Positions 7,776-60,142 of a DNA stretch of 64,000 nucleotides are shown one piece after another. Each line of letters opens with the position of its first letter. Within the stretch, counting starts at the first letter, position 1. The notes beneath the pieces were generated by a model. It was not told the DNA's origin. It was given only the letters and a program-made list of their open reading frames with translations, and made no database searches. Source of the DNA: Minisyncoccota bacterium (GTDB taxonomy: Bacteria > Patescibacteriota > Minisyncoccia > Phycocordibacterales > JABAAK01); assembly GCA_965222235.1 (NCBI GenBank), contig OZ244939.1:94041-158040 (forward strand), in the 5' to 3' direction. Both the position numbers and the translations under genes were made by a program.

Positions 7776-8383
7776 ATTTTTTGAAAAGAGTTTTTTAATT
7801 TCTGCGCGACGAACACTTTTTCATGATAAAGCAAAAACATACGGTATATTCATAAAACATGTTTTCAGTGGAAAACTTTTCACCGGGTTTTTATAAAACT
7901 ACAGGTGTGACGGATTTTTACTTTAAGTTTGGTATGTATAAATCTTATACGAAACGACTTATCTAGTCGTTACTTCATCTCATAGCATTCTACTGTAAGG
8001 GAGGGGGTATGGGCGGTAAGTGTATTTTGGTAGTACAGGGTCACCGTGGAATAATAACTCTTCTCTAAAAATTAACGAAATGAGCATTGCTAACACAGCA
8101 GAGAAAATAATATTCAAAAGTACGGTGATGATTTTCTTGTAAGGTACATCCTTTGTATTTTCTTCTTCTTTGTATCGCCCCTTGATACAAAAAACAGTAG
8201 ACCGGCAATAAGTCTGAGGAGCACCGCGAGTATACCGAGCCATACCCATATATTTCCCTGTTCGCTTTCGTGCGCTCCGCTCCCGCGCCATCTCGCCCAC
8301 CACCTTCCCGCTTACCCGCTTTGCGGGAAGTGGCGGGTTTCATTATTCCAACCATCATTTGGTATACTGTCTATACAAAAGGT

Positions 8384-9142: not shown

Positions 9143-9143
9143 C

Positions 9144-9947
9144 ATGGTGACAAGAAAGAAAGCAAAAATATACACTAAGAAGGAATTACTACAGAAACTC
9201 AAGGAAATAGCAGACATGGGATGGGTGTCGAATACCAGGCATGGTAATGATGGTGGTGTGGGCAATACTCTTGAAGATTTACTCGGCATTGAAGAAAACA
9301 ACCTGCCGATACCAAACGCCGCCGAGTGGGAACTAAAGACACAGAGAATTAACACAGCATCACTTACTACATTATTTCACAGTGAACCCTCACCCCGCGC
9401 AATTCATTTTGTGCCACAGATATTACTTCCTCTGTACGGCTGGGTACACCAAGAGAGCGGTAAAAAGTACCCAAAAGGTGAAATGAGTTTCAGACAAACG
9501 ATACATGGACAAACAAGAAGTGACCGTGGGTTTATGGTAGTAATTGACCGCAGAAAAAAGAAAGTTTTGATTTCTTTTAATTCCGGCAGTGTTGATGTTC
9601 GGCATAAAAAATGGCTATCGTCTGTCAAAAGGCATGTGGGTCTTGGCGAAATTGATCCGCAGCCATACTGGGGATTTGATGATTTAGAACACAAAGCGGG
9701 TACAAAACTGCTCAATACATTCTATGTGCAGGCAGAGGCAAAAAGGGTTCGTGGCAAAGAGTATTACCGATACACAAAAGTAACAATGTTACAGAAATTT
9801 AGCTTTGACGGTTTTCTCAAAGCACTTGAGGAGGGAAAAATACTTGTTGATTTTGATGCCCGTACCGGACATAATCACGGTACAAAATTTCGCATGAAAC
9901 AAGGTACGCTCCCTACACTGTATGAGAAAAGTAAAATCATTTATTGA
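9144..9947 (+). CDS. putative type II restriction endonuclease partner of the upstream MTase (candidate MvaI/BcnI-like)
   Basis: ATG lies 1 nt after the MTase TAA stop. About 268 aa, AT-rich, no recognisable housekeeping motif. The assignment rests on context plus a weak resemblance (GGVGNTLEDLLGIEENNLPIP...EWELK); it is not proven. Confidence 0.4.
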   Translation: MVTRKKAKIYTKKELLQKLKEIADMGWVSNTRHGNDGGVGNTLEDLLGIEENNLPIPNAAEWELKTQRINTASLTTLFHSEPSPRAIHFVPQILLPLYGWVHQESGKKYPKGEMSFRQTIHGQTRSDRGFMVVIDRRKKKVLISFNSGSVDVRHKKWLSSVKRHVGLGEIDPQPYWGFDDLEHKAGTKLLNTFYVQAEAKRVRGKEYYRYTKVTMLQKFSFDGFLKALEEGKILVDFDARTGHNHGTKFRMKQGTLPTLYEKSKIIY

Positions 9948-10077
9948 TATATAAATCTTTTACAAACAAAGTTTGAGAGTAAATTACCTGTCTTAGTCGA
10001 AAGGACTTTTAGGTGGACTTTTATATAATTTTATTATCTCCGCCTTTTCTTTATTTAATGTTGACTCGTCAATTTGA

Positions 10078-11412
10078 TTGACACGATCGTCCACTTCGCT
10101 AATATCAATAAATCCTCATAAATTGGCAGAAAAAATCGCTAATTCAATAAAGAACCTTGATAGTGACGATAGTCTGGCCATTGGTATTGAAAGTAAGTGG
10201 GGTTCTGGAAAAACATCCTTCGTGAATCTGACACTTGAGAGCTTAAAGGAATCGGATCTTTTAATTATAAAGTTTAATCCTTGGAATTTTTCAGATCAAA
10301 ATGAACTCATCAAAGATTTTTTTAACTCAATTGCAAGAGAGCTGAGTCAGTGTGATGAGGATATAAAAAACAAAAATACTAATAAGTATACCGCAAACCC
10401 CGTTGATTTGATAAGAAGATATTATGTCAAATTACTAAAACGATCAGAAATAACAGTAACGGGATTTAGTTTTTTGTGGTTTAATTTTAGTTTTGGTAAA
10501 AAATCTGAATTTCATGATAGTACTCCATTAGAGAAACAGAAAGAGGAGATTAACGGGACTCTAAAAAACGCAGGGAAACGAATAGTGATTGTTATTGATG
10601 ACATTGACAGATTAGATAAAGAAGAAACGAAGACTGTTTTTAAATTGGTAAAAAATACTGCAAGGTTTAGTAATATAACCTTTCTTCTGACTTATGATAG
10701 AAGAAGAGTGTGTAAGCAAGTGAGTGATGAAGAAGTTGATGGGGAGGAGTACTTGAAGAAAATTATACAAATGAGATTTCCTTTGCCAAAGCCGGAGAAA
10801 CAATACCTGTTCAATATTCTTTTTGCAAGAATTGATTCTGTTATAGATGTGGACAAAAATGATATAGTGCGGTTGCAGCGTCTTTTTCATTCCGGTTTCA
10901 AAAATCTTTTCCCCACCGTTCGTGATATAAAGAGATATATAAACAGCATAAGACTTGATTTGGCGGCGATAGGGAGAGAAGAGATAAATCCTGTTGATTT
11001 TTTGGGTGTTGGAGCCATCAGAGTATTCGCCCCTGCCATCTATCAATCCATGGTTGATGAAAAAGATGCTTTTATCGGCCTTGATAGTGGTTTTATAAAT
11101 GATCCTAACCGAAGTGAAGAGCGGGAAAAGAGAAAAAATATCTGTGAAAACATAATAGCGGAAAAATCTCCCGAAGGATTATCTGATATTGTCAAAACAA
11201 TAATTCATGAACTTTTTCCTCAATGCAGATCTCTTTACTCCAACACACATTATGGTCCTGATTGGGAGTCAGAATGGAGAAAGGAGTTGAGAGTTTGTTC
11301 CAAACATTTTTTTGATAGATATTTCTCACTTTCTGTCCCTTCAACATCTGTCTCAGAAAATACCATAAATGATCTTTTAAGGAATATCAACAGTAGGGGG
11401 AAGATTCACTAA
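10078..11412 (+). CDS. KAP-family P-loop NTPase (N-terminal part)
   Basis: Walker A GIESKWGSGKTSF and the KAP signature IKFNPWNF. Walker B VIVIDDIDRL. Confidence 0.6.
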   Translation: MTRSSTSLISINPHKLAEKIANSIKNLDSDDSLAIGIESKWGSGKTSFVNLTLESLKESDLLIIKFNPWNFSDQNELIKDFFNSIARELSQCDEDIKNKNTNKYTANPVDLIRRYYVKLLKRSEITVTGFSFLWFNFSFGKKSEFHDSTPLEKQKEEINGTLKNAGKRIVIVIDDIDRLDKEETKTVFKLVKNTARFSNITFLLTYDRRRVCKQVSDEEVDGEEYLKKIIQMRFPLPKPEKQYLFNILFARIDSVIDVDKNDIVRLQRLFHSGFKNLFPTVRDIKRYINSIRLDLAAIGREEINPVDFLGVGAIRVFAPAIYQSMVDEKDAFIGLDSGFINDPNRSEEREKRKNICENIIAEKSPEGLSDIVKTIIHELFPQCRSLYSNTHYGPDWESEWRKELRVCSKHFFDRYFSLSVPSTSVSENTINDLLRNINSRGKIH

Positions 11413-11416
11413 AAAA

Positions 11417-12163
11417 TTGAAAGAGTTTGAAGAGGACAAGATGTACTCTGTATTTGATCGCCTTTCTGATCACACAGATAGTTTAGACGATCAGGAGCTT
11501 CAAAATTTAATTTTGGGAATATTTGATGCTGCCGATCATGTGGAAGATTTGGGAGAAATAAGATTTGATTTTCAGAATATTGATACAAAAGCAATGCTGA
11601 TTGCCCATGAAACCTTGAAAAAGGTTCAGAAAGAAAAAAGATTTGATTTGATTTCCAAAATCCTTAATGTACAAGAAATATATTTTTCTTGCGCATTATT
11701 AATATTTCACTTGAACAAGGAGTTTGAGGATTCTAAGGGAAGAAATTCAGGAGAATCTCCAACATTAACAGGGGATGAGGTTAATAATCTGAAAAGCGTT
11801 TTTATTAAAAAAATAAAAGAGCAGGCAAAAAATGGTTCGTTGGCTAACAGCAAAAATCTTCCATATTTCCTTTACAGATGGAAAGAATGGGGTTTAGAGA
11901 AAGAGGTAAGAAAGTATGTAAAAGAATTATCACAAACAGATGAAGGGTTGTTGATTCTGCTTGAGAAGTTTGAGTCAGTTTCAACTGAAACAAGCAATGA
12001 GGGGACAAAAACGATCAAGAGAGTCGACAAAGAGTCAATCGGACGACCTAATAGATCCTCTTTCTTTGTTTCTATTGGATTGTCTGAAATCATAATTTCC
12101 ATGATACTAGATTATCCTTATCAAGGCACAACATTCCCACCTTTGTTCTTTTTGCTCCGCTAA
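11417..12163 (+). CDS. hypothetical protein. It may be the C-terminal remainder of a split KAP NTPase.
   Basis: It starts 4 nt after the 10078..11412 stop, in the +1 frame, with a TTG start. KAP NTPases are normally 600-900 aa, so 444+248 aa would fit a disrupted single gene. Confidence 0.3.
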   Translation: MKEFEEDKMYSVFDRLSDHTDSLDDQELQNLILGIFDAADHVEDLGEIRFDFQNIDTKAMLIAHETLKKVQKEKRFDLISKILNVQEIYFSCALLIFHLNKEFEDSKGRNSGESPTLTGDEVNNLKSVFIKKIKEQAKNGSLANSKNLPYFLYRWKEWGLEKEVRKYVKELSQTDEGLLILLEKFESVSTETSNEGTKTIKRVDKESIGRPNRSSFFVSIGLSEIIISMILDYPYQGTTFPPLFFLLR

Positions 12164-33902: not shown

Positions 33903-34284
33903 TACACGAGACATATGACGATGTGTGCAATGGGTTAGAAGTGTATTCAGAAGCGATACATTACGGGAAAATTATTAATGGTGGAATAAAGCATTGTCGC
34001 CATATTTATTATGAAGATATAATGAAAGTTTTGAGTACAGGAAAATATTGGAAAAATATATAACAATATTTTTTATTATTTATCCACCCCTGGTTATGGT
34101 TTCCCCTGGATTTGGTTTGGGTAATGTTTGGGGATTTTGAGGATCACGCCCCTTGGTTATAGTTTCCCCTTGATTTGGTCTTGGTAATACAGAAGAATCA
34201 TCCTTTGACGGTTTTGACGGTTGTGGTTGGGCTGATTTATTATCTTTGGACATAATTAAATAATAGCAGTATATCACAAAAAAT

Positions 34285-34773
34285 CTAAATTATTAAGGAC
34301 AGTATAAATGGAAGTACCAGTAGGAATGAAGCAGCGATGAAAAAATATACTGCCCAACGATATAATAAAACTTTTTTCTCTAAAATACTGTTATTATTAG
34401 TAAAAGCATGTTGAGCGTCACTTATGAGTTGTAAAAGTAAATCTTTTTCAGGCTTTTCTAAATATTCAGGGTATTTCTTAAGATTTACAGAAATTGTTAA
34501 GTATTTTTTAGGGTGAGTTACAATAAGAAGGAAAATCACTGAAACTATAAGTAGCAATAAACCAGACATGCTTGCACAAAGACTTTTTCCACCAAGATTG
34601 TCAATAATAATGGGTACTGAAATAAATGCTGAATATCCAGTCATTAGAGCAATCTCAATTCCTATTAAAGTTGCAGCTTTTCCATCCAAACAATTATCGG
34701 CACTTGATAGGTGATCAATCTTGTTTTTCACTGATTCAAATAAAATTTTAAGCCCGTTATTTTCTTCTTTCAT
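34285..34773 (-). CDS. hypothetical three-TM membrane protein (island 3)
   Basis: 162 aa. Soluble N-terminal about 30 aa, then three hydrophobic helices. AT-rich. Divergent from the ParB-like gene. Confidence 0.4.
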   Translation of the reverse strand: MKEENNGLKILFESVKNKIDHLSSADNCLDGKAATLIGIEIALMTGYSAFISVPIIIDNLGGKSLCASMSGLLLLIVSVIFLLIVTHPKKYLTISVNLKKYPEYLEKPEKDLLLQLISDAQHAFTNNNSILEKKVLLYRWAVYFFIAASFLLVLPFILSLII

Positions 34774-34842
34774 TTAATTTTCACACTTTTATAATGTACA
34801 GTTTAACATAATATTTTTATCCTCTGTTATAATAATACCTAT

Positions 34843-36138
34843 ATGAATACACGGAATAGATGGCCTAAGCAGGATGTGAAACATGATGATATCGTTTTTG
34901 ATACCTATAATCCTCGATTACCTCTCGAGCAGATAGGAATGCTGAATCAGGAAAAACTTTATAATTTCTTGATAGAAAGCGGGGCTGACAGGATAGCGTA
35001 TCAGATGCGTATTGATGGCTTTCATAACAGTGAAATACTAATCGTAGTGAAAGAGGGTAGCAAATTTGTGGTTGTTGACGGCAACAGACGCCTGGCAGCT
35101 TTTCGGTATGCATGTAAAAAAGAATGGGTAGACGGTATTATCACCTTATTGCCCATCACTATCGCTCCGTCCCGGGAAGAAGCCGATCAGGAGATAGTAA
35201 CTAAACATGTCGGCAATCTAAAATCTAATTGGAATTCATTGAATCAATTAAATAAGTTGCAGGAAATTGTTTCAAGATCAAAAGTATCATTGGTTGAAAT
35301 TAGCAGACAACATCCAGCGCTAGGAAAAGAAAAAGGAATAAAAAGAAGATTAAAAAATCTTGCGATATATAATATTATTACTCGGCAACCATGGTTGACT
35401 GAGAAAGAAAAGAACATCCTCAAACAGCGCGGTATTAACATGATTAATCGTTTTTTCACCTCGAAATCCAGCAATGTATTTTTTGATTGGGATGCTATGG
35501 ATTATCCGTTTGATGAATTAGAATTGGAACGAAAAATTAATGACCCCGCGAGCAAGCGTATTATTAAACGGTATATCTTAAACAGGAACACATCAGCACA
35601 AATTAAAGCTTCGGAGGTAGAGAAGATATATCAATCCACAACATCTTCATCAGAATCCGACAAACAAGGCAGAAAGGTTTCTACTCAAAAGAAAACTACA
35701 GAGCGAACAGTTTTGGTGCCGAATGACTGCACCATTACCATAATAAAGCAAGGGAGAATAAAAAATATATACTTGGAACTTAAAAATGATCTACGGGTGG
35801 ATAAAACACCGAATGCGGCTGCAGTACTTTTCAGAGTTTTTATTGAGTTGAGCTTAGATCACTACCTGGAGAAAAAGATGAGGTATATTCCCGGAAGAAA
35901 CGAGAACATTTCTGGAAAGATCACTAAAGTTACGAACTATATGGAAAAAGAAGAAATTGCCAATAAAAACCAACTGAACAATATCAGGGGCGTTGGATCT
36001 GGAAACACTTACTTAAGTATAGAGAATTTTCACGCATATGTACACTCAACAAGAACTTCACCGACGCCGGAGGATATCAAACTGAAGTGGGACAATCTGC
36101 AGGAGTTTTTTGAGATGTTGTGGGATGATGTATCATAA
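34843..36138 (+). CDS. ParB/Sulfiredoxin-fold N-terminal domain protein with large unknown C-terminal region
   Basis: 431 aa. SKFVVVDGNRRLAAFRYA matches the ParB-nuclease DGxxR core. The C-terminal about 300 aa has no recognisable motif. The Dam-like MTase starts 8 nt after its stop. Confidence 0.55.
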   Translation: MNTRNRWPKQDVKHDDIVFDTYNPRLPLEQIGMLNQEKLYNFLIESGADRIAYQMRIDGFHNSEILIVVKEGSKFVVVDGNRRLAAFRYACKKEWVDGIITLLPITIAPSREEADQEIVTKHVGNLKSNWNSLNQLNKLQEIVSRSKVSLVEISRQHPALGKEKGIKRRLKNLAIYNIITRQPWLTEKEKNILKQRGINMINRFFTSKSSNVFFDWDAMDYPFDELELERKINDPASKRIIKRYILNRNTSAQIKASEVEKIYQSTTSSSESDKQGRKVSTQKKTTERTVLVPNDCTITIIKQGRIKNIYLELKNDLRVDKTPNAAAVLFRVFIELSLDHYLEKKMRYIPGRNENISGKITKVTNYMEKEEIANKNQLNNIRGVGSGNTYLSIENFHAYVHSTRTSPTPEDIKLKWDNLQEFFEMLWDDVS

Positions 36139-36145
36139 AAGTAGT

Positions 36146-36955
36146 ATGAAAACACCGCTTAGGTATCCTGGAGGGAAGGCGAAATTCGCTCCATATTTTT
36201 CTAATTTCATAGACGAGATGGGTATTAAAGATGCTATTTTTGTTGAGCCATTCTGCGGTGGTGCGGGTGCGGCGATAAAATTGTTGTTAGCAAGGAAGGT
36301 AAAAAAAATTTATATCAATGATTTTGACAGAAGTATTTATGCATTTTGGCATACCATCCTTAATGATTCAGAAAAAATAATTAAAAAAATCAGAAGGGCC
36401 CCTGTAACCATAGAGCAATTTGATAAGCAGCGACTTATACAAAAAAGGAAAGATTCCGTTGATTTATTTACCTTGGGATTTTCCACCTTTTTTTTGAATC
36501 GTACCGCTTTTTCAGGTATTTTGACCGGTGGTCCGATAGGCGGCAGAGCGCAAAACGGTCCGTATATGTTAGGGTGTCGTTTTAACAAAGAAGATTTGAT
36601 ACAGAGAATACAACTATTGTTCCGTCATAAGAATCAAATAAAGATTTTTAATAAAGATGCGGTTGATTTTTTGGCGATGCTTGTTATAAAAAAACTGCCG
36701 AAATCAAGAACAATATTTTACATCGATCCTCCTTATTTTGAAAAAGGTGTGTACTTGTATAAAAACAGCTATTTAACAGAAGATCATAAAGTGCTGGAAA
36801 ACACACTAAGAAAAACAAAAAAAGCAATTTTTGTTTCTTACGATAATAGAAAAGAAATTAAAGAGATATACTCCTCATGGCAATCTCACATGGTTGATGT
36901 CTCCCATTTTGCCAGGAAATATAAACCAGCTAAGGAAATTATTTTTTACAAATAG
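36146..36955 (+). CDS. Dam-family (D12 class) N6-adenine DNA methyltransferase
   Basis: PLRYPGGK, EPFCGGAGAA (motif I), NRTAFSG, IDPPY (motif IV) in the alpha-class order. Start at ATG 36146 (MKTPLRYPGGK). Confidence 0.8.
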   Translation: MKTPLRYPGGKAKFAPYFSNFIDEMGIKDAIFVEPFCGGAGAAIKLLLARKVKKIYINDFDRSIYAFWHTILNDSEKIIKKIRRAPVTIEQFDKQRLIQKRKDSVDLFTLGFSTFFLNRTAFSGILTGGPIGGRAQNGPYMLGCRFNKEDLIQRIQLLFRHKNQIKIFNKDAVDFLAMLVIKKLPKSRTIFYIDPPYFEKGVYLYKNSYLTEDHKVLENTLRKTKKAIFVSYDNRKEIKEIYSSWQSHMVDVSHFARKYKPAKEIIFYK

Positions 36956-37183
36956 TCATTTCAAAAGATATATAGTGGAAATCTCTATGCTCAAATGGCT
37001 ATTTCTGTACAGGTAATACAGTAATTGGAAAAATCTTCCAACTTATTTTTCATTTTTCGTATTGAGGTGGTGTTGCCGCTTACAATGTATTCCTTGCAAT
37101 TTTACTCTTCAAAAATATCATCAATGGTCATAGTAATACCATTTTTGATTTCAGATAGAACAATTTCTAAAATGTCCCCTCTT

Positions 37184-37999
37184 TTATTTGTTTATTTTCC
37201 ATATATTTTCTTTTAAACTTATTTTACCCTGTTTCTTCAAATTCTGCTGCGCACCTCTAACTAAATGTTTCCATTTTTTACCAAAGTGTTGACCATTTAT
37301 AATCCGATCTATTGTGTCATCACAAATATCCGGATGCGCCCTTCTGATATGTTTATTTAAACTGTCGGTTGACAATCCTTCGTGCTTATCAAGTAGGTAC
37401 AATATAGTATCTGAGAATATTCCATTTACTGTCTTACCCCCTTTTACACGATTTTTCATAAGCAACTCATTGAGTGCGCTATGTTTTCCGTCATCTTTTT
37501 CAATGATCTGCTCAATCCTTTCTGTCATTTCTAAGATCTCACTTAAAAAATTTCTGTCAAAGATATTTCCAAGAGAAAAATATTTCCGCAAATCACCCTG
37601 GATTAATTCAACAGTCTCCGTATCGCTAAACAGCACTCCGTATTCAAGATTGTTATATATCCCGCCACTTGTCAGATTTGCTGATGTAACTATTGCTTTT
37701 GTATTGTCTGTTATATAGATTTTGGCGTGTAAATTTTCCACACTTGATACTTTCACATTTTTAAATTTTTTGAAAATATCGACCATTGAATTTGGATCAG
37801 TAATACCTCTAACGATATTACTACAACTCAAATTTGCAAGAATTGTAACCGTGCAGTTTTTATTACCTGAATTCAATAAAAAATCAACGCCGACCTTGTT
37901 TATGAATGGAGAGCTTATTATTATTTCCTTCCTTGCTCCACTGAGAAAATTCCTAAAATCAGAGGCCCAATTTTTTGCTAATAACCTCGCTTCTGCCAT
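37184..37999 (-). CDS. PLD-family (single HKD) nuclease with C-terminal putative DNA-binding domain
   Basis: NLHAKIYITDNTKAIVTSANLTSGG is the HxK(x)4D(x)6GSxN motif of PLD/Nuc/BfiI-type nucleases. About 110-aa basic C-terminal extension. Convergent with the Dam-like MTase. Confidence 0.65.
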   Translation of the reverse strand: MAEARLLAKNWASDFRNFLSGARKEIIISSPFINKVGVDFLLNSGNKNCTVTILANLSCSNIVRGITDPNSMVDIFKKFKNVKVSSVENLHAKIYITDNTKAIVTSANLTSGGIYNNLEYGVLFSDTETVELIQGDLRKYFSLGNIFDRNFLSEILEMTERIEQIIEKDDGKHSALNELLMKNRVKGGKTVNGIFSDTILYLLDKHEGLSTDSLNKHIRRAHPDICDDTIDRIINGQHFGKKWKHLVRGAQQNLKKQGKISLKENIWKINK

Positions 38000-38320
38000 A
38001 AATGAATTTAATAGTCGTTTTCCCCAACCTTAGCTTTTATTATCACAATCGGGAAAAGTGTACCGTATTCCATTACATTTAGTATACCTTACAATATTAA
38101 ACAACAACCGCAAAAAATAAGGAAATCCGTCCACATATAACCCTGAACAGGAAGATATATGGGCAGATTACTGAAGTCCTCCCCCACCATCACAACCCAT
38201 ATTTTCTTTTTCAATTTGTCCGTCGCCTCACCCATTCAAAAACAGGAAATTCCTGGTGTTATACTAAACTTTATACAAAGGCTATAGATATACAAAATAC
38301 GAAAGCGGTGAAAAATATCT

Positions 38321-39970: not shown

Positions 39971-40206
39971 ATATCGTGCCGCAACCATCGCTTCCCGCAT
40001 ATGACCGGCAACGTGCCGATGTCGAAACAATACCATCAGCAATATCTGCTGAAGCAGGGCGGGGTGTGGGGTGTGCGAAATCCCCCCTTTCTCCTATGTA
40101 TACCAAAGTTTAGACGCTATCCCGATCTCAGTGGCCGGAAAGTGAGTGCGTACAACACTTTTCTTTTTGTGGTATATACTGAAAGTATTAGCAATTAAAA
40201 TAAATT

Positions 40207-40509
40207 ATGAACATCATCACAAAATATATTTGTTGGGGCGCAGCAATAATGTTTGCTATAAGCGCGATTGGTTTGATACTCGGACCCTCACCGCTTGGTC
40301 TTATTTTCGCACCCATACTGGGCATCACATTCCCCCTGTTGAAAATAATAAGCACGCCGTTCGCATCGATACAGGCAATACTTTCCGGAGGCTTTTACGG
40401 CTCCCCCCACGGATTTTTCACGGTCTTTATCCTGCTGACCGGATGGAACACACTGCTCGGTGCTCTGGGAGGATGGATCGTGGGAACGATTGTCAGGCGG
40501 AAACAATAG
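40207..40509 (+). CDS. hypothetical polytopic membrane protein
   Basis: 100 aa with three hydrophobic helices. Confidence 0.35.
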   Translation: MNIITKYICWGAAIMFAISAIGLILGPSPLGLIFAPILGITFPLLKIISTPFASIQAILSGGFYGSPHGFFTVFILLTGWNTLLGALGGWIVGTIVRRKQ

Positions 40510-40630
40510 CAAAGAGCAGCAAGGAAAATAGGAGGTGGAGATTGGGGCGGCAGAGTGAAGCACACAGACACCATCCCGCCCGAAGAGGACAAACGGTACA
40601 CACTCGCTATTATATAACAGCATACCTTTA

Positions 40631-41311
40631 TCATCTATTTCTAGGATAAGGATACCAGGGCCAAATATCAAATTTGCTACGGTGTTCTTTGAGAATAATA
40701 CTCGCTAGGTGATTTCTGTTTTCTGAAATAAATGACTCATTACCATTTGCATTTCCCTTCTCACAAATTAATCCAGTGACTATGTCAGTCAACTGCATCA
40801 AGGAGTTTATACGAGAATCACAAGGCTGAAAATGTTCTATTTCACAATCCAAATACCGTTCAATATAACTCCTGGTCTTCTGCCTCCACTTTTCATCCCT
40901 TGATTGTCTGCTTTCCTGAAATTGGTCAAATAAAATATGCAACTTACTTGGATTCACTTCCTTCCGTAACTCTCCTCTAACAGCATTTCTGCTAATAAGT
41001 AAATACATAAATTTTAATTGTAGCTCCTCAGTAACCTTTTGTTCATCCAATTTCTTTGTATCTATAACAATGAAACGGAAAAATGCATTCATATCAGAGA
41101 TTGCTTTTATAAATTCCTTATAAAAACACATAATATCATCCGAGGTATGATCACTGACTTTTTCCCATTTTACCTCTCCCCAACACTTAAAACGCAATCG
41201 CAATTCAGAAACATGCCTTTCAAAATCTGAAACACATTCCTTCGGAGCCCAAACAGAACCCAACACAAAGAAACGCTTGTTAATACCAGATTCATCACAG
41301 GTAACAAACAT
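40631..41311 (-). CDS. DUF3800-like hypothetical protein (island 4)
   Basis: 226 aa. N-terminal TCDESG...FVLGSVW resembles the start of the DUF3800 family. AT-rich. Confidence 0.3.
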   Translation of the reverse strand: MFVTCDESGINKRFFVLGSVWAPKECVSDFERHVSELRLRFKCWGEVKWEKVSDHTSDDIMCFYKEFIKAISDMNAFFRFIVIDTKKLDEQKVTEELQLKFMYLLISRNAVRGELRKEVNPSKLHILFDQFQESRQSRDEKWRQKTRSYIERYLDCEIEHFQPCDSRINSLMQLTDIVTGLICEKGNANGNESFISENRNHLASIILKEHRSKFDIWPWYPYPRNR

Positions 41312-42151
41312 ACCAATACATATACATAAAAACTAAGAAAGCTTGCCCTTCAGACTATTTATGTTTTTTTGATAGGAATCCTCTGCGGGACCAAATATCT
41401 TAATGTTCTCAATTTCCCTGTCAACAAAGTCCCGTAATATTCTCTTTTCTCTTTCAGAAACCTCAAGATTCCCTCTTTTAGAAAACCATTTTTTCATATA
41501 CAAAACATGACTTATTAATAGTATAAGTATGCCATCACCATATGTCAATGAGACATATCCACAACACAAAACTATACTGGTCAACCCTAAATGACGAAGC
41601 AAATACTATTGATGCCCATACCTTAAGTAGTGAGGAGACAACAAGCGGAAAATTATCCTCACTTCAGAACTCTTTTTTAAATATTGATAACGTTGATTCT
41701 CATATAAAAAGAAGTATACTGACTATAACGAAGTAGAATTATGTTTGGAATAAAACACATACTCCGTATGGGCAGCACCCAGAAAAACGTTTCCGAAAGG
41801 ATGCAGGATGATTTGATGTATAAATTTATTCACATGTCTTCGCGGGAGCACAAAAAATTTATGAAAAAAATTATAAGAGGCGCTACAAAGAGACAAATAG
41901 AAACTCTCAAGAAAGCAGCGGGTATGAAAAAGATGTAAGCACTTCATCTAGACATCTCTACACCGTGTCATAGACAGCGCAACAACTTCTTCCGGAGCGG
42001 GAAGATTCCCGTCATTCTTAAAAAAATCTTTCTTATCCACCCGGACTCGTTTTTCATTACCGCTGCGCAATGTCTCCCCATGTTGTTGTCAGAAGAACAT
42101 TGAAAATGGTATATTGTCCGTGGGCTTCCCGCCACACAACAGGAGAGTGCT

Positions 42152-50183: not shown

Positions 50184-52478
50184 CTACCGCACCTCAAATC
50201 CTTTCTCCTGCAGCACCCGATACAGCCGTTCCGTCTGTTCATTGACAATACCGTCATCAAGTGTCTGAGAATCCGATTGAAATACCAGACGGAACGCATA
50301 TGATGTCCGTCCGTCTTTGACAAATGTGTCAAATAGATTGGTGCGGTATAGATAGCTGCCGCCGTGATCGTGCAGCAGCCGTTCCGCATCTTCTGCAGAA
50401 ACACCCGGGGGAACGAACATCGCAACATCGCGGAGCGCGAACGGATACGGCGAAGGAATACGATACTGCACATCCCCGATCGCCGGAGGAAGCATGTAGG
50501 TGTCAGCGGTAAGATCAATATCGTCAAGCACCACCTCCAATACCGAACCGTCAAAACTGCCGGGCAGGTCAATGCGGGAACGTACCGCCTCCTCAATCTC
50601 TTTCATATTCACCTTCGGCCTGCCGACCGTTTCAGTTACGCCGAGCGCAAGATGAACCTTTTCACCGTCTTCAGTGAAAACACTGCCGATTTCCATAATC
50701 CGGATATCACGCAGGCCGAGCAGCTCGCCGTTGTGCGCATTGCGCACAAGTGCCTCCTCAATCCCCTGCCGGAGATTCGGGCGGAGACACCCTTTGTCTT
50801 TCGCCACCGGATGTGCAACACAGATATCCCCCCTGTCACGGAATGAATAGGTGATGACTTCGGAAAAACCGAGCTCCCCGAGCTCCCGAATGAGCGCCAA
50901 ACGCTTCGCGAATGTTTTCGTGACCGTTCGTGCCGGTACATCGCCCGCCGGATCGGCTGCCGGTACGGCATCATAACCTGACATCCTGCCGATCTCCTCA
51001 ATGACATCGGCTTCGTGCTGTATATCAGGCCGCTCAACAGGAACGGTAATAATGAATCGCCGCTCGCCCCCGGACCATATCTCAGATGCATACACCATCC
51101 GACTGCGCTGAAACGGACGGCGCACGACGGCACGTTCGCCGGTGTCCCCTTCCGCCTCAATGACGGTATCGGCATCCAACAGAACCCCCGCATGATTGAT
51201 ACCCCGTTCGAGCGTGCCGGGAGACACCGGATACCCCGCCTCATATACCTGTTTTGTATGCAACGGCAATTTCGGATCGGCGGACACCATAAACACGAGG
51301 TCACCGGGTTTCGGATCAATCACCGGATTTGTTGAAAGATACTGATTAACAGACATACGGGGAAGTGAGGTGCCCGCCTGCGCCGCGGCAAAACATATGA
51401 GCGAGGAGCAGTCAAACATATCCGGCGCGTCTTTGGTGACTGATGCCCCCCAGGCATATGGTTTGCCGATCTGTAACTGCAGCACATCAAGGAAATATGC
51501 CCGGGGATCGCCGTACTCAAACGGCAGCTGCAGCCGCTCCAGTACATTCCGTATATCCTTCTCCGTGTATGATGACCCGAGATACTGATTCACACCGGCG
51601 ACTGACATGCCTGTTTTCCGCTGCCGTCCGAGCGGTACGCGCCGGCAGTCATATGACCCGGTGACGGTGCCGTACTGACCGAACACTTCCGCGACGCGAT
51701 GCATGGTATAGTCAATGAGCTCGGCGGGAAGATTCTGAGAAAAACGCAGACCGGCATCGGAGGTAAGATTAAGGCGGCGCATCGTTGCACGCACCGCGGC
51801 GCCCTGAAAGGTTGCCACTTCTACATATATATCTTTTGTGTCCGCATCAACTCCGGCATCCTCGCCCCCCTTAATGCCGGCCAGCCCCACGGCGCGGTCG
51901 TTGTCAACAATGACCGTATCCTCGGGTGTCAGCGTGATCGTGTCGCCGCCGAGAAGTGTCAGTGTTTCACCCTCCTTTGCCTGCCGTACACCGAACATTC
52001 CTGTAGTTTTTGCCGCATCAAATACGTGCGTCGGCTGGCCGATATCAAAAAGCAGGTAGTTAGATAAGTCAACAAGCGGACTGATGCTCCGCTGTCCGAG
52101 CGCCTCCAGCCGCTTCTGTATTTCAGCGGGCGTTTCGCGCAGATTAATATCTGACACGTTCAGCACGGTGTACCGGTCGCACCGGTCGGTATAAATATAT
52201 TCCTTTTTCTCCGCGAATGAAAACGGTGTATCAAAATACCGCCGGTTCATGGCAAGCGAGAAAATGGCCGCGATCTCTTTCGCGATGCCGTAGTGCGCAA
52301 GACAATCCGCGGAACGGTTCGGCAGAATATCAAGTTCATAGACCGTGTCACCGTTCTGTTCCGCTGCCGACTCAACCTCAAACGAATGCCGCATCAGCCC
52401 TTCACGAATATCTTCCGGAGGCGGCAGCGGTATATCAAAGAATGATTGTAACCAGGCATGGCTGTATATTCTTTTCAT
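50184..52478 (-). CDS. pheT: phenylalanyl-tRNA synthetase beta subunit with an embedded NlpC/P60-like domain
   Basis: B3/B4 editing domain (LVDLSNYLLFDIGQPTHVFD). B5. B6/7 start FIITVPVERPDIQHEADVIEEIGRMSGYD. C-terminal anticodon-binding domain. Residues about 325-472 form an extra domain (see findings). Confidence 0.85.
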   Translation of the reverse strand: MKRIYSHAWLQSFFDIPLPPPEDIREGLMRHSFEVESAAEQNGDTVYELDILPNRSADCLAHYGIAKEIAAIFSLAMNRRYFDTPFSFAEKKEYIYTDRCDRYTVLNVSDINLRETPAEIQKRLEALGQRSISPLVDLSNYLLFDIGQPTHVFDAAKTTGMFGVRQAKEGETLTLLGGDTITLTPEDTVIVDNDRAVGLAGIKGGEDAGVDADTKDIYVEVATFQGAAVRATMRRLNLTSDAGLRFSQNLPAELIDYTMHRVAEVFGQYGTVTGSYDCRRVPLGRQRKTGMSVAGVNQYLGSSYTEKDIRNVLERLQLPFEYGDPRAYFLDVLQLQIGKPYAWGASVTKDAPDMFDCSSLICFAAAQAGTSLPRMSVNQYLSTNPVIDPKPGDLVFMVSADPKLPLHTKQVYEAGYPVSPGTLERGINHAGVLLDADTVIEAEGDTGERAVVRRPFQRSRMVYASEIWSGGERRFIITVPVERPDIQHEADVIEEIGRMSGYDAVPAADPAGDVPARTVTKTFAKRLALIRELGELGFSEVITYSFRDRGDICVAHPVAKDKGCLRPNLRQGIEEALVRNAHNGELLGLRDIRIMEIGSVFTEDGEKVHLALGVTETVGRPKVNMKEIEEAVRSRIDLPGSFDGSVLEVVLDDIDLTADTYMLPPAIGDVQYRIPSPYPFALRDVAMFVPPGVSAEDAERLLHDHGGSYLYRTNLFDTFVKDGRTSYAFRLVFQSDSQTLDDGIVNEQTERLYRVLQEKGFEVR

Positions 52479-56920: not shown

Positions 56921-57898
56921 CTACATTCTCTTTTCAACGATGAAACCCTTCTCCGTGCCGATAATGCCGATGCCGTACACCTCCTGTGCGATGCCCTGAT
57001 GTAGCAGTTTTTTGGCAATCTGATTGACAGTCGCTCCGGATCCGATCATATCGTCAATAATGAGAACCCGGGTGAACTTCTCTTCATACAGCGGGATATG
57101 GAATGTGAGGTCGGCATATTTCAGCCGCTCCGCATCAGTTGACAGATATTTCTGCTGCTGCGGAACCTCTCCCCCCTGTTTCTCTATCGGTATGACCGGC
57201 AGTGAAAAAGCACCTCCAAAGCTCCGGGAAAACGAGTGCATAATCTGAAAATCCCTTGAGGCAGAGTGAGGAACAATCACCACCGCCTCAATGTCTTTGT
57301 CGCGGATATACGCGCGAAGGACGGGGAGAAAATCTGACAGCAGCTGCCTGCCGTACCTCTCTGCCTGCGGTGTGTTGTCCTTGGCGATGCCGAGAAAAAT
57401 TGATTCTTTGGTTTTTCCGAAATCAGGCAGCGCATACGGAAATGCAAACACGGCCTCCTGCAAAAACATTTTTTCTCCGGTTTTTTCAGAAAAAGACCGT
57501 ATTTTTTCCGTTGAAGAAAAAATGTTTCCCTGTACCGCGCTGACAGCCTCCTCATACAGGCTGACTTTTTCCTGCAGAGAATGTTTTTTTAAACTGCCGT
57601 CAGACCACCGTAAAAAGGCTTCGGCACCCGTGTACATATCACCGATGGTGTCCCTGTAGATAAAGTGTTTTTCAATAAGGGGGCTTCGTATGGTCGGGTC
57701 GGGTCGGCGCACCATGCGGTAGCGAACGCGCGGTGCTCTGCCTAATTTCTCCACATGCCCGCTCTCGGTCAGCTCCTTCAGATACCTATGCACCAACTGC
57801 GGACTGACATTCAGCAGGCGCACCAAATCACGCGGCGCACAGTCCTGCTTCTCCAGCATATCCACCAATGCCTGCCTTTTACTGGTTGTATGTTTCAT
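56921..57898 (-). CDS. winged-HTH + phosphoribosyltransferase-domain regulator (PurR-like architecture)
   Basis: N-terminal wHTH (LVRLLNVSPQLVHRYLKELTESGHVEK). C-terminal PRPP-binding motif VLIIDDMIGSGATV. Confidence 0.55.
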   Translation of the reverse strand: MKHTTSKRQALVDMLEKQDCAPRDLVRLLNVSPQLVHRYLKELTESGHVEKLGRAPRVRYRMVRRPDPTIRSPLIEKHFIYRDTIGDMYTGAEAFLRWSDGSLKKHSLQEKVSLYEEAVSAVQGNIFSSTEKIRSFSEKTGEKMFLQEAVFAFPYALPDFGKTKESIFLGIAKDNTPQAERYGRQLLSDFLPVLRAYIRDKDIEAVVIVPHSASRDFQIMHSFSRSFGGAFSLPVIPIEKQGGEVPQQQKYLSTDAERLKYADLTFHIPLYEEKFTRVLIIDDMIGSGATVNQIAKKLLHQGIAQEVYGIGIIGTEKGFIVEKRM

Positions 57899-57935
57899 GA
57901 TGGTATGGTATCACATATATAAACAAATATACAGA

Positions 57936-58195
57936 CTATGGAATAAGGATATTAAGATAAAAGTCCACTATATACAGGATATTTTTTAGTTTATAGCACA
58001 CCATGTACTATAAACAACCATAGAGCCTATGAAATAAGGATATTGAGATAAAAGTCCACTATATACAGGATATTTTTTGGTTTATAGCACACCGTGTACT
58101 ATAAACAACCATAGAGCCTATGAAATAAGGATATTGAGATAAAAGTCCACTATATACAGGATATTTTTTGGTTGTATGGCACATCATACATGCTA
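57936..58195. repeat. tandem repeat, 91-bp unit x about 2.8 copies, each with a 25-bp near-palindrome TTTATAGCACAC-C-GTGTACTATAAA
   Basis: Units start at 57936, 58027 and 58118 with 2-4 mismatches between copies. The third copy degenerates after about 70 bp. Confidence 0.85.
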
Positions 58196-58284
58196 CACCG
58201 TCATATACTCCAGTATCGTAAAGAATGGTGAGAGAGATCTGCACACGACCGGGGTACATCCCGATCGTGTGTACACATAACATC

Positions 58285-58300
58285 TTTCTCTTGCTCCGAC
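58285..58300 (-). other. 16S precursor trailer half of a 16-bp leader/trailer processing stem (partner at 59883..59898)
   Basis: The + strand 58285-58300 TTTCTCTTGCTCCGAC is the exact reverse complement of + strand 59883-59898 GTCGGAGCAAGAGAAA. Confidence 0.6.
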
Positions 58301-58399
58301 TGCCTCCGGTTACGCATATCCGGAAAAGCGGGTACATGTTTCGGACGAGGTACCATTGTCCTGCTCACAAATAAATGAGAGCAATTGACTTCCTCCTTG

Positions 58400-59875
58400 C
58401 GGAGGCAGTTTCCTTGAATTATTCCACGAACAGCTTCCGCTACCCGTGCCTTGTTACGCCTTAGCCCTTGTTATTGAATTTACCTTAGACCCGTATGAAA
58501 CGGGGCGTCGGGTACCCTCAACTTCCTTGACTTGGCGGGCGGTGAGTACAAGACTCGAGAACGTATTCACCGCAGCGTGCTGATCTGCGATTACTAGCGA
58601 TTTCAACTTCATGAGGTCAAATTGCAGACCTCAATCCGGACTGAGACTACTTTTATGAGGATTTGCTCCGGCTTGCGCCTTGGCTTCCCGTTGTAGCAGC
58701 CATTGTATCATGCGTGCAGCCCGAGGCATCGAGGGACATGCGGACCTGGCGTCATCCTCTCCTTCCTCCCTCGTGAGAGGGCAGTCTCGTCTGACAACGT
58801 ATAACAGACGACGAGGGTTGCGTTCGTTACCCCACTTAAGGGAACAGTTCAAACCACGAACTGACGACGGCCATGCATCACCTGCCTACCCGCCCGAAGG
58901 AAATACCCCTTTCAGGGTATCGTCGTGTAGGTTTCTAGCCTCGGTAAGGTTTGTCGCTTAGCATCGAATTAAGCCGCGTGATCCACCGCTTGTGCGAGTC
59001 CCCGTCTATTCCTTTGAGTTTTAAGCTTGCGCTCGTACTACCCAGGCGGCTTGCTTAACGCGTTAGCTTCGCCTCATGAGGGTCAATGCCTCAAAAAGCT
59101 AGCAAGCATCGTTTAGGGCGTGGACTACTGGGGTATCTAATCCCATTCGCTACCCACGCTTTCGTCTCTGAGTGTCAGGAGCAGACCAGTGTGCTGCCTT
59201 CGCATTTGGTGTTCCCCACAGTATCAACGGATTTCACCCCTACTCTGTGAGTTCCACACACCTCTTCTGTCCTCAAGCACTGCCGTTTCGTATGCGGTTT
59301 TCCGGTTGAGCCGGAAGATTTAACATACGACTAACAGCGCCACCTACAGACGCTTTACGCCCAGTGATTCCGGGTAACGCTCGGGGCTTCTGTATTACCG
59401 CTCCTGCTGGCACAGAATTAGGAGCCCCTTATTCATACGGTACCGTCAATAAACTTCTTCCCGTATAAAAGGTGTTTACGCGCCGAAACGCTTCATCCAC
59501 CACGCGGCGTCGCTCCGTCAGGCTTTCGCCCATTGCGGAATATTCTCGACTGCGGCCTCCCGTAGGAGTATGGCCCGTGTCTCAGTGCCATCGGTGGGGG
59601 TCAGGCTCTCACCTCCCCTACGCGTCATAGCCTTGGTACGCCATTACCGTACCAACAAGCTGATGCGAAGCAGGCCCATCCCTAAGCGATAAATCTTTAC
59701 TCCGTAGAGACTATCGGGAATTAGCACATCTTTCGATGCGTTATGCCCGACTTAGGGGTAGATTCCTACCTGTTACTACCTCGTTTGCCACTGGGTCCGA
59801 AGACCCCGTTCGACTTGCATGCCCTATCCACGCCGCCAGCGTTCACCCTGAGCTAGGATCAAACTCTAAAAAAAG
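58400..59875 (-). rRNA. rrs: 16S ribosomal RNA, not linked to a 23S gene
   Basis: 5' end: reverse complement AGAGTTTGATCCTAGCTCAGGGTGAACGCTGGCGGCGTGG at about 59867. 515F/806R/1390-type conserved blocks. The 3' end is ...GTAACAAGG...GGAAACTGCCTCC near 58401. Confidence 0.9.
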
Positions 59876-60142
59876 AAAAACGGTCGGAGCAAGAGAAACA
59901 TGTCATATGTCTCCCCTGCCGTTCCTTACTCTATAGTGTACATAGGTTATGTATATATGTATACATAATAATTGTAAAAGATCATACGCCAACGCGTACT
60001 TAATCAGTATACGCTGAAACAGTGCCTTAGGTCAACTGTTTGATAGAATTGTGTGGGGATAAAATCAAAAGACCGCGGGTGTTAGTTGAAGTGTTTCATC
60101 ATATCTTCCGCAGAAGTAAACCCCCAGAGACATCCCTCCCCA

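Follow-up and report, generated by a model that had tools for sequence, protein, structure and literature searches.

Cleavage of the Escherichia coli rRNA precursor by RNase III leaves about 115 extra nucleotides at the 5' end of 16S rRNA and 33 at its 3' end. Bacteroidetes conserve the canonical 3' tail and make weak use of Shine-Dalgarno (SD) motifs, the anti-SD being masked by ribosomal proteins in the mature ribosome. Eukaryotic and archaeal pre-18S/16S rRNAs have no CCUCC tail, and a structured ITS1 spacer remains attached to them until a late Nob1 cut at site D, which acts as a maturation checkpoint. In Patescibacteria, rRNA genes are commonly unlinked (bioRxiv 10.1101/705046), a state that Brewer et al. 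define as a gap of more than 1500 bp from 16S to 23S or the absence of a 23S. A subgroup of Parcubacteria is missing the anti-SD motif, and the same study reports that uL1 and bS21 are frequently lost as well (Tsurumaki et al. 2022, PMC9297842). Era, which recognises GAUCACCUCC, is lost in most CPR bacteria, including most Paceibacteria (PMC10582724, PMC12641178), and rnc, rnj and pnp are retained in CPR (PMC12641178). Stand-alone 16S genes, the processing stem and missing anti-SD function were already known for this group or for bacteria. What the present locus adds to the searchable literature is a replacement for the lost tail: between helix 45 and the processing helix lies a conserved, structured RNA that includes a covarying pseudoknot.

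The locus lies in a 64-kb stretch of DNA, hereafter the window. An Rfam search identified a full-length bacterial 16S gene covering model positions 1-1533 of RF00177 at 1366 bits, an untruncated match (gathering score, 50). The gene is encoded on the minus strand and, once this is taken into account, all sequence facts of the original prediction were borne out, including a compact 16S of about 1475 nt: its length is 1463 nt by the Rfam limits and about 1474 nt when CCUCC is included. Helix 44 is short: 70 nt separate positions 1408 and 1492 (E. coli numbering), compared to 83 in E. coli. The core pseudoknot 505-507/524-526 is compensatory (UCC/GGA), as are pairs 1406-1495, a C-G replacing U.U, and 1409-1491, an A-U. 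That core helices are maintained in this way speaks for a functional rRNA gene and against a pseudogene. Among the public genomes scanned, the nearest relatives are labelled Candidatus Pacebacteria and Kaiserbacteria, and relatives are 91-96% identical over the full span from leader arm to trailer arm, trailer included. On the minus strand, a sigma-70-type promoter is followed by a small hairpin with a boxA-like element, a leader hairpin, the leader arm and the 16S gene, and then by a structured 3' extension of about 125 nt, the trailer arm and a terminator-like hairpin (Table 1). Very likely, the locus is a complete monocistronic 16S transcription unit of a Paceibacteria (Parcubacteria/OD1, CPR) bacterium, equipped with a leader-trailer helix and with a structured 3' extension that replaces the anti-SD tail.

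Table 1. Features of the 16S unit, from promoter to terminator-like hairpin (positions in the window)
Feature	Position	Strand	Remarks
16S promoter TTGACC, 18-nt spacer, TATACT	60006..60035	-	consensus scan, 10/12 matches; putative function
Leader 5' part: small hairpin (59999-59984) and boxA-like UGAUCUUUUACAAUU (59984-59970)	59966..59999	-	
Leader hairpin, upstream GCAGGGGAGACAU pairing with AUGUUUCUCUUGC (part of leader arm)	59889..59919	-	predicted fold
Leader arm, perfect core 59898-59883	59883..59910	-	ends 8 nt before 16S 5' end
16S rRNA, Rfam limits	58412..59874	-	RF00177; helix 45 ends at 58426
Mini-hairpin UUC-AAG-GAA (tentative), in tail replacing GGAUCACCUCCUUA	58410..58418	-	subclade-invariant
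Hairpin A, CCUCC-GCAA-GGAGG (the 'anti-SD' hairpin of the original prediction)	58392..58405	-	predicted, -9.1 kcal/mol
Conserved GUCAAUUG, then variable hairpin B (CUCUCA...UGAGCAG)	58362..58389	-	hairpin B predicted
H-type pseudoknot PK1	58331..58361	-	100% paired in subclade; covaries across clade
Second interleaved pairing PK2 (proposed)	58306..58330	-	100% paired in 6 sequences
Trailer arm, perfect core 58300-58285	58273..58300	-	pairs with leader arm
Terminator-like hairpin, 12 bp, G+C-rich, CACACGAUCGGG-AUGUA-CCCCGGUCGUGUG	58242..58271	-	directly after trailer arm; no U run

The 16S gene had been proposed to stand alone, and neither the window nor any relative examined offered a 23S partner. 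Rfam searches of the 64-kb window returned no 23S or 5S, whether at the gathering score or at E<=0.05, with no LSU match across the 58.4 kb downstream or the 4.1 kb upstream of 16S; there is thus no 23S within 1.5 kb downstream of the window gene. Likewise, 23S was not found near 16S in 17 related genome loci, in 46 related loci with at least 3.5 kb of downstream sequence, or in 13 related loci with 6-14 kb of it. The stand-alone 16S is a trait of the entire clade and not peculiar to the window. As had also been noted, a repeat region and a protein-coding gene lie downstream: on the strand of the 16S gene, three 91-nt tandem repeats (57918-58190) are followed by a gene at 56921-57898 (-) that encodes a winged-HTH domain and has a weak, sub-threshold phosphoribosyltransferase-domain match. 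Short-read contigs of the same organism (L001 and L002) break in these repeats, just downstream of the unit and 86 nt short of the neighbouring gene, and the region is therefore hard to assemble. These breaks are what could suggest an artefact, namely that mis-assembly parted 16S from 23S, or else that the gene is a decaying pseudogene with an accidental inverted repeat. However, the same unlinked architecture is present in the independently assembled complete chromosomes OY282360.1, OZ241963.1, OY764332.1 and OZ244141.1 and in dozens of metagenome contigs, while the 16S itself is full-length, carries the compensatory changes described above and has a promoter before the unit and terminator elements behind it, so that we give either form of this explanation almost no credence.

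The control elements around the gene are recognisable in relatives as well. Transcription of 16S would start near 59998. The TTGACC-N18-TATACT promoter is also found upstream of 16S in related loci L021 and L055, and GGTATACT is the corresponding upstream sequence in L025, L056, L037 and L024. Further downstream, the motif TCYTTWACAATT is kept in the leaders of the window, L021, L025, L056 and L037, and the leader element UGAUCUUUUACAAUU presumably resembles the E. coli rrn boxA (UGCUCUUUAACAA). A conserved leader TTACAA, considered as a -35 box, was dropped in view of the conserved promoter sequences further upstream and re-read as boxA-like. For the predicted leader hairpin, MFE and centroid folds agree (z = -2.75), and an equivalent hairpin (GCAAGAGA... 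with ...UCUCUUGC) is predicted in 7 of 7 subclade members (z from -2.3 to -4.4); relatives were judged by per-sequence folding, and a MAFFT alignment of the window hairpin was mis-registered. This hairpin is a pairing alternative to the leader-trailer helix for the leader arm. At the other end of the unit, the terminator-like hairpin went unreported by the default terminator scan because it has no T run, and canonical intrinsic terminators occur in many relatives at the same place, 10-50 nt past the trailer arm.

A perfect 16-bp complement had been reported to bracket the 16S gene in the manner of RNase III processing stems. The complement is exact, 58285-58300 (TTTCTCTTGCTCCGAC on the plus strand) being the reverse complement of 59883-59898, and a repeat search extended it to 28 nt at 89% (58273-58300 and 59883-59910). 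With G-U pairs and one mismatch allowed, 27 of the 28 positions pair, whereas shuffled trailers average 12.5 and never exceed 15; by our arithmetic, the chance expectation of a perfect 16-mer is about 1e-5 among some 6x10^4 leader x trailer position pairs. The duplex between the arms has an energy of -46.2 kcal/mol, the 16-bp core alone contributing -27.5. A leader-trailer helix was found in 34 of 44 related loci, with 19-36 paired positions compared to about 13 in shuffles and with differing arm sequences, as counted by an ungapped search with shuffles; RNAduplex (150-nt leader x 400-nt trailer) gave over-extended, huge-looped duplexes. In a 6-sequence alignment of the helix, 93.4% of cells are paired and 6 pairs are compensatory. 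The likeness to RNase III stems thereby holds: the helix lies far above shuffles, recurs among the related loci and has covarying arms. It is genuine, evolutionarily conserved and of the RNase III type, and from this we infer cleavage by RNase III itself. rnc is not among the genes of the 64-kb window, and we presume from the literature that the genome encodes it elsewhere.

The stretch from helix 45 to the trailer arm (58425-58301), about 125 nt long, is a structured and conserved 3' extension that occupies the place of the usual tail. The canonical tail GGAUCACCUCC is kept in only 2 of 134 clade members. In the window, helix 45 is followed by GGAAUAAUUCAAGGAAACUGCCUCC, and positions 58413-58392 of the minus-strand RNA read ...GGAAACUGCCUCC-GCAA-GGAGG, the end that the original prediction had described. 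The mini-hairpin has UCC/GGA, GUC/GAC and CUC/GAG variants in the wider clade, with a stem of at least 4 bp in 79% of clade tails and 48% of shuffles, a weak signal. Folding of the precursor flanks yielded both the leader hairpin and hairpin A, and the latter is well conserved as a structure, with 88.9% of cells paired and 4 of 6 pairs compensatory across 6 relatives. Its loop is of the GNRA type in 5 of 6 (GCAA, or GAAA in relatives) and larger in L037.

The original prediction had read CCUCC as the anti-SD, able in the precursor to pair with the adjacent GGAGG through a GNRA loop; on this model, a functional anti-SD would be masked until 3' processing removes GGAGG. The hairpin stands, as a predicted and conserved structure, but the anti-SD identity is not supported. 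In favour of the latter, the window shares CCUCC with L021, its closest relative, the predicted 5-bp GNRA hairpin is stable (-9.1 kcal/mol), and 6 of 47 genes have GGAG or GAGG 3-14 nt before the ATG. In addition, L055 reads AUCACCUUC, a sequence reminiscent of canonical AUCACCUCC, so that the old tail may be the origin of this strand. Against it, CCUCC begins 20 nt past helix 45, inside the predicted hairpin and about 11 nt further away than a canonical anti-SD, instead of lying in a single-stranded GAUCACCUCCUUA context directly after helix 45. Among relatives with 91-96% identical 16S loci, the 5' strand becomes CCUUC, UCUCCU or UCUCUC and the partner strand changes to match, and selection thus acts on the pairing, not on the CCUCC sequence. 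The canonical tail is missing from 132 of 134 clade members, and anti-SD loss in the group is already published (PMC9297842). SD-like motifs were not enriched before genes of the window (6 of 47 vs a 7.3% background, p=0.12), with starts crudely set at the first ATG in the longest ORFs, whereas 10 of 47 genes carry a -10 box 6-9 nt ahead of the ATG, compared to 3.8% of control ATGs (p ~1e-5), as for leaderless-type promoters. Translation here appears, from these motif counts, to be largely leaderless or SD-less. A masked anti-SD is not supported and we regard it as very unlikely; with the clade tail replaced by conserved structures, CCUCC is therefore a strand of a stem.

The partner of the CCUCC tract could also lie in the trailer. 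ACUGCCUCCG (58409-58400) and CGGAGGCAGU (58308-58299) form a perfect 10-bp complement in the window with a duplex energy of -20.1 kcal/mol, which would stack coaxially on the leader-trailer helix to give one RNase III substrate of about 26 bp from which the 16S body emerges, hairpin A being an alternative conformer adopted after cleavage. In 6 relatives, 82.8% of cells are paired, compared to 29-57% when the strands are slid, and 3 pairs are compensatory, a score reached by 8 of 500 shuffles. This pairing nevertheless excludes hairpin A, with its 4 compensatory pairs, and stem S4 of the extension, which is 100% paired, both of them better supported; some of the trailer positions that it uses are paired with the leader in relatives, its pyrimidine-rich and purine-rich strands easily pair through G-U, the co-fold MFE favours the combination of hairpin A and S4, and the wider clade shows no evident counterpart. 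Initially a candidate for the main structure, the 10-bp complement was demoted to an alternative that we find improbable, in favour of hairpin A and S4.

Downstream of hairpin A, GUCAAUUG is nearly invariant in the alignment with relatives, while hairpin B differs in sequence and length in each. The pseudoknot PK1 comprises S1, GGAC (58361-58358) with GUCC (58346-58343), and S2, GGUAC (58354-58350) with GUACC (58335-58331), and its loop 3, GAAACAU, is A-rich. The arrangement is that of an H-type pseudoknot, the 5' strand of S2 lying in the S1 loop and both stems covarying among sequences selected by the pseudoknot finder. PK1 and PK2 are invariant in the close subclade, which numbers only 6-7 sequences, and support therefore comes from more distant relatives. 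In a search restricted in geometry and calibrated on shuffles, the PK1 arrangement was found in 49% of 132 clade trailers compared to 4.3% of shuffles, and 77 loci carried 63 different S2 strands between them; the unrestricted finder was dominated by terminator hairpins. A gapless 10-sequence alignment, picked with the finder so that its percentage paired is set by construction, has 9 of 11 compensatory pairs and a covariation score of 0.99 vs 0.32, reached by 0 of 500 shuffles. The independent evidence for PK1 consists only of this covariation and of the shuffle-calibrated enrichment. For PK2 we propose a stem S3, CGC (58330-58328) with GCG (58315-58313), that would interleave with S4, CCGG (58323-58320) with CCGG (58309-58306); the S4 hairpin is part of the MFE fold, and the 6 sequences contain only one compensatory pair, U-A to C-G. 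Folded as a single sequence, the extension is unexceptional relative to shuffles (z = -1.2). The trailer matched no described RNA family (5S, tRNA-like, SRP or RNase P) when 58150-60050 was searched against Rfam 15 at E<=1, where the only matches were SSU rRNA and one chance snoRNA match inside the 16S body. It had no Rfam match in the whole window at E<=0.05 either, ARAGORN found no tRNA in it, and no description of its structure was found in the searchable literature. The original prediction had missed these roughly 110 nt of conserved, pseudoknotted RNA between hairpin A and the trailer arm.

A maturation pathway can be proposed from these elements. During transcription, the leader arm would first pair locally with a copy of the trailer-arm sequence that lies upstream of it, in the predicted and conserved leader hairpin. 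After a further 1.6 kb or so, with the trailer arm transcribed, the two arms would form the 27-28 bp duplex to which their complementarity and covariation point, and RNase III would cut this duplex to leave a pre-16S that is nearly mature at its 5' end. The clade has lost the single-stranded GGAUCACCUCCUUA tail, and hence both the anti-SD and the Era binding site, and this tail is replaced by the tentative mini-hairpin, the GNRA-capped hairpin A, hairpin B and the H-type pseudoknot with its A-rich loop, the proposed PK2 closing the extension and stacking on the processing helix. With moderate confidence, we favour a role of the extension as a cis-acting pre-rRNA element: in a lineage without Era, it would arrange or time the maturation of the 3' end and the late steps of 30S assembly, and would then be removed endonucleolytically.

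Alternatively, the extension might be kept in the mature small subunit, as a 3'-terminal expansion segment or a nicked-but-bound fragment. The ribosome would then initiate mostly on leaderless mRNAs, and the extension would take the place of the anti-SD tail on its platform. The PK1-PK2 segment is as conserved as the 16S body or more in genomes with about 91% identical 16S loci, and the processing helix directly adjoins the 16S 5' end on one side and the final module of the extension on the other, so that RNase III would leave the extension attached. In addition, pseudoknots resist 3' exonucleases, CPR bacteria reportedly have a minimal RNase set (PMC12641178), and bS21 and Era, the normal contacts of the tail, are commonly absent (PMC9297842, PMC10582724). 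However, anything between 98 and 206 nt separates helix 45 and the trailer arm among relatives, and hairpins A and B are freely variable, as in a spacer. A bulky RNA at the mRNA exit site could also hinder translation, and no bacterial 16S rRNA is known to us to carry a 3' extension of 100-200 nt. Retention strikes us as rather unlikely. More tentative still is its general form, in which Paceibacteria would have exchanged the anti-SD tail for a 3' domain of 100-200 nt, conserved and pseudoknotted, that stays in the mature small subunit or bound to it; if true, bacteria would have a 3'-terminal rRNA expansion segment, and this would be linked with leaderless initiation and with the absence of Era and bS21.

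Transient or retained, the structured extension spans a very large uncultured radiation and offers a handle on ribosome maturation in bacteria without Era and many other assembly factors, on translation initiation without SD/anti-SD pairing and on the position of the true 16S 3' end in these bacteria. In practice, annotation and RBS-prediction pipelines should not score the 3'-end CCUCC of such genes as an anti-SD.

Compared with known systems, the locus resembles Bacteroidetes in its weak SD usage and in a CCUCC tract kept from pairing with mRNA, but in the window this tract is unconserved and pairs with RNA in cis. Eukaryotic and archaeal pre-18S/16S rRNAs offer a parallel in working only, with no CCUCC tail and a structured spacer after the small-subunit rRNA; there is no homology, the organism is a bacterium, and no evidence of Nob1 or of a site D was found here. 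The locus shares with the Parcubacteria subgroup without anti-SD (Tsurumaki et al. 2022, PMC9297842) both the lineage and the loss of CCUCCU at the 3' end. Whereas that paper records only the absence of the motif, we describe a structured extension replacing the tail, and the window genome has a CCUCC inside hairpin A that could be mis-scored as an anti-SD. As with published unlinked rRNA genes, among which Patescibacteria are explicitly listed, 16S stands alone, with no 23S for many kb and throughout the clade, making the window a further example with no difference in kind, although the leader/trailer anatomy is not described in that paper. Finally, as in the rrn stem of E. coli and Bacillus subtilis, a long leader-trailer duplex surrounds 16S, its 27-28 bp suffice for RNase III, it is conserved through covariation, and a promoter and boxA-like leader element precede it. 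In contrast to these species, the geometry is inverted, the leader arm ending only 4-15 nt before the 5' end and the trailer arm lying about 125 nt past helix 45, the unit of the window stops just past the stem and does not run on into tRNA and 23S, and a conserved leader hairpin competes for the leader arm.

The 16S gene at 58412-59874 (-) is a complete bacterial small-subunit rRNA (Rfam, 1366 bits, model 1-1533). C1406-G1495 replaces the otherwise universal U.U pair, A1409-U1491 is also present, and the 530-loop pseudoknot shows a double compensatory change; judging from sequence, these features point to an rRNA that is divergent but still works. The decoding-site changes (U1406.U1495 to C-G, C1409-G1491 to A-U) fall in positions 1399-1505 (window 58449-58544), and the 530-loop change (GGC/GCC to UCC/GGA; positions 505-526, window ~59330-59370) creates a mismatch to the universal 515F primer site as well. 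A search pattern based on the 1406/1495 signature matched 54 loci in one-genome-per-species collections, and pattern searches of genome collections also found C1406/G1495 in Micrarchaeota archaea and in Clostridia of a Christensenellaceae-like group. By blastn, the nearest locus is OY282360.1 ("Candidatus Pacebacteria", 95.6% across the whole locus), followed by two Kaiserbacteria MAGs and two Paceibacterota chromosomes (~91%); OZ244141.1 reaches 89%. Among the related loci from public genomes and metagenomes (L numbers), L049, L005, L012 and L036 are titled Alphaproteobacteria or Saccharibacteria MAGs and carry 16S genes and trailers of the Paceibacteria-type clade, which suggests mis-binning or mislabelling. 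L062 has a group I intron (3982-4246) at the extreme 3′ end of its 16S gene, and in several further relatives the 16S gene is 2.2-3.8 kb long, presumably owing to insertions.

The gene content of the window (aminoacyl-tRNA synthetases, mraZ/rsmH, PBPs, two MreB, RRF, ParB, RelA/SpoT, TopA, LepA, rpsB-tsf, pheST and lamin-tail-domain proteins) is in keeping with a small bacterial chromosome. In the phenylalanyl-tRNA synthetase beta chain (50184-52478, (-)), an NlpC/P60 peptidase domain is inserted between B3/4 and B5, an architecture likewise recorded on two independent contigs. Low-G+C islands (8270-12163, 34000-38000 and 40000-42000; 0.34-0.42 vs. ~0.52) carry restriction-modification/defence-type genes (N4/N6 methylase with MvaI/BcnI endonuclease, KAP NTPase, Dam-type methylase, PLD nuclease, DUF3800) and were probably acquired.

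As originally predicted, the 16S stands alone: no LSU or 5S model match occurred anywhere in the 64-kb window (Rfam, gathering score and E<=0.05), and searches next to the 16S turned up no 23S in 17 related genome loci, in 46 loci whose downstream sequence spans 3.5 kb or more (median 6.8 kb) or in 13 loci with 6-14 kb downstream (Rfam scan). The prediction that repeats and then a protein gene follow the 16S also held. Upstream of the 16S, GGTATACT occurs in L025, L056, L037 and L024, and 3′ of the promoter lie a small hairpin and TCYTTWACAATT, a conserved element that we take to resemble rrn boxA. Many relatives carry a canonical intrinsic terminator 10-50 nt 3′ of the trailer arm. With a predicted promoter, a terminator-like hairpin and no 23S nearby, the window 16S thus forms a separate transcription unit. 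Previous work describes unlinked rRNA genes as typical for Patescibacteria (bioRxiv 10.1101/705046); the arrangement itself is therefore not new.

The downstream repeats are head-to-tail and A+T-rich (100/91/75% identity; AGGATATT twice per unit), sit between the terminator-like hairpin and the winged-HTH gene start at 57898, and may be operator or promoter repeats of this adjoining regulator gene. Same-organism short-read assemblies break within them, contigs L001 and L002 stopping 86 nt before the gene. In L069 (3068-3462), L170 (543-882) and L168 (5803-6188), the stand-alone 16S is followed 0.3-1 kb downstream by an RNase P RNA gene, one of the three loci having a tRNA in the interval; the window has no such arrangement. 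L031 (Dojkabacteria-labelled) and L040 (Saccharibacteria-labelled) retain the canonical GGAUYACCUCCUUU tail, and two tRNAs come after their 16S, with no 23S detected in the following 5.6 and 1.4 kb, respectively.

Features of the 16S locus and example translation starts
Feature	Position	Strand	Remarks
Promoter	60035-60006	(-)	TTGACC-18-TATACT; also upstream of 16S in L021, L055
Leader arm	59910-59883	(-)	ends 8 nt before 16S 5′ end
Hairpin A, window and L021	58392-58405	(-)	CCUCC-GCAA-GGAGG
Hairpin A, L055			CCUUC-GAAA-GAAGG
Hairpin A, L025			UCUCCU-GAAA-AGGAGA
Hairpin A, L056			UCUCUC-GAAA-GAGAGA
PK1 stem S1	58361-58358 with 58346-58343	(-)	GGAC with GUCC; H-type pseudoknot
PK1 stem S2	58354-58350 with 58335-58331	(-)	GGUAC with GUACC; H-type pseudoknot
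PK1 loop 3			GAAACAU, A-rich
PK2	58330-58306	(-)	CGC/GCG + CCGG/CCGG, interleaved; fully paired in subclade, one compensatory pair
Trailer arm	58300-58273	(-)	starts ~125 nt after helix 45
12-bp G+C hairpin	58271-58242		no U run; 3′ of trailer arm
91-nt tandem repeats, n=3	57918-58190		downstream on 16S strand
Winged-HTH protein gene			beyond repeats, downstream on 16S strand; phosphoribosyltransferase-domain match weak, below Pfam cutoff
Large Ig-like surface protein gene			upstream of 16S
Starts with (G)GTATACT box (examples)	18094, 20105, 31335, 48688, 54060	(-)

The predicted 16-bp complement bracketing the 16S was confirmed: the two flanking 16-mers are exact reverse complements, and a repeat search extended them to 28 nt at 89% (58273-58300 / 59883-59910). 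With G-U pairs and a single mismatch permitted, the arms pair at 27 positions (shuffled trailers: mean 12.5, maximum 15), and the predicted duplex energy is -46.2 kcal/mol. A leader-trailer helix of 19-36 paired positions was present in 34 of the 44 clade loci with both flanks available. Arm sequences vary by subclade (UUUCUCUUGCUCC/GGAGCAAGAGAAA in the window, UUUUCUUUUGUUCCGUU/AACGGAACAAAAGAAA elsewhere), and in a six-sequence leader-plus-trailer alignment 93.4% of cells pair, six pairs having changed on both sides. Furthermore, a local leader hairpin, in which the leader arm pairs with a copy of the trailer-arm motif located upstream of it (GCAAGAGA; GCAGGGGAGA in the window), was predicted in 7/7 subclade members (z -2.3 to -4.4); this hairpin may act as a placeholder, displaced upon trailer transcription.

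Immediately 3′ of helix 45, the window RNA reads GGAAUAAUUCAAGGAAACUG-CCUCC-GCAA-GGAGG, and the proposed pairing through a GNRA loop was recovered as a predicted hairpin of -9.1 kcal/mol (hairpin A). Compensatory changes affect 4/6 of its pairs, and selection thus keeps a GNRA-capped stem, not the CCUCC sequence. Among 134 tails (120 further loci retrieved by scanning metagenomes for the clade's helix-45 signature, plus the genome loci carrying it), only 2 contain GGAUCACCUCC and only 8 have CCUCC anywhere within 45 nt. This scarcity agrees with the anti-SD motif reported missing in a Parcubacteria subgroup (PMC9297842) and is consistent with most CPR having lost Era, which reads GAUCACCUCC (PMC10582724, PMC12641178). 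The identification of CCUCC as an anti-SD was wrong. SD-like tetramers were also not enriched before starts in the window (6/47 genes vs. 7.3%, p=0.12). At least 10/47 genes have a (G)GTATACT -10 box with its end 6-9 nt upstream of the ATG, vs. 3.8% of control ATGs (p ~1e-5), start figures being indicative only because gene start calls are crude; this points to putative leaderless mRNAs, widespread in the organism.

From leader arm to trailer arm, trailer included, relatives are 91-96% identical to the window, and segment 58361-58301 is nearly invariant within the subclade of close relatives. Because PK1 is invariant there, it was tested in the wider clade, where 49% of 132 trailers vs. 4.3% of shuffles gave an H-type pseudoknot scoring >=24 in a geometry-restricted search, with 63 distinct S2 strands among 77 loci. 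When ten diverse loci sharing the same spacing were aligned without gaps, 9/11 pseudoknot pairs were compensatory, and the covariation score (0.99 vs. 0.32) was reached by 0/500 shuffles; the percentage paired is set by construction since the finder chose these loci, which does not apply to the covariation. PK2, with a single compensatory pair, is treated as proposed, and a mini-hairpin directly 3′ of helix 45 is weakly indicated. The tail ACUGCCUCCG (58409-58400) could instead pair with CGGAGGCAGU (58308-58299), possibly as a transient conformer; the two are perfectly complementary in the window beside the trailer arm, and 82.8% of the pairing is kept in relatives with three compensatory pairs, but it clashes with the better-supported hairpin A and with S4 of PK2, as well as with leader pairing in relatives. 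Many clade trailers (e.g., L168, L035, L012) have, just 5′ of the trailer arm, a hairpin with the near-invariant loop motif GGAAAGAC(C), absent from the window's subclade; the L168 motif matched the 23S A2058-region probe GACGGAAAGACCCC with two substitutions allowed, probably by coincidence.

Alongside the observed anatomy of the locus, its conservation and its covariation, we propose that transcription would start at the mapped promoter, that the leader hairpin would give way to the leader-trailer helix, and that RNase III cleavage would then yield a near-mature 5′ end and leave the structured extension at the 3′ end. CPR genomes are reported to keep rnc, rnj and pnp (PMC12641178), and no rnc is among the genes of the 64-kb window. 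We consider it somewhat more probable that the extension acts in cis during maturation and is cut off late by an endonuclease; its retention in the ribosome as a 3′ expansion segment seems less likely. The trailer matched no Rfam family and is undescribed in the literature searched. The main addition is a variant of pre-rRNA architecture, in which a clade-wide pseudoknotted 3′ trailer takes the place of the canonical 16S tail.
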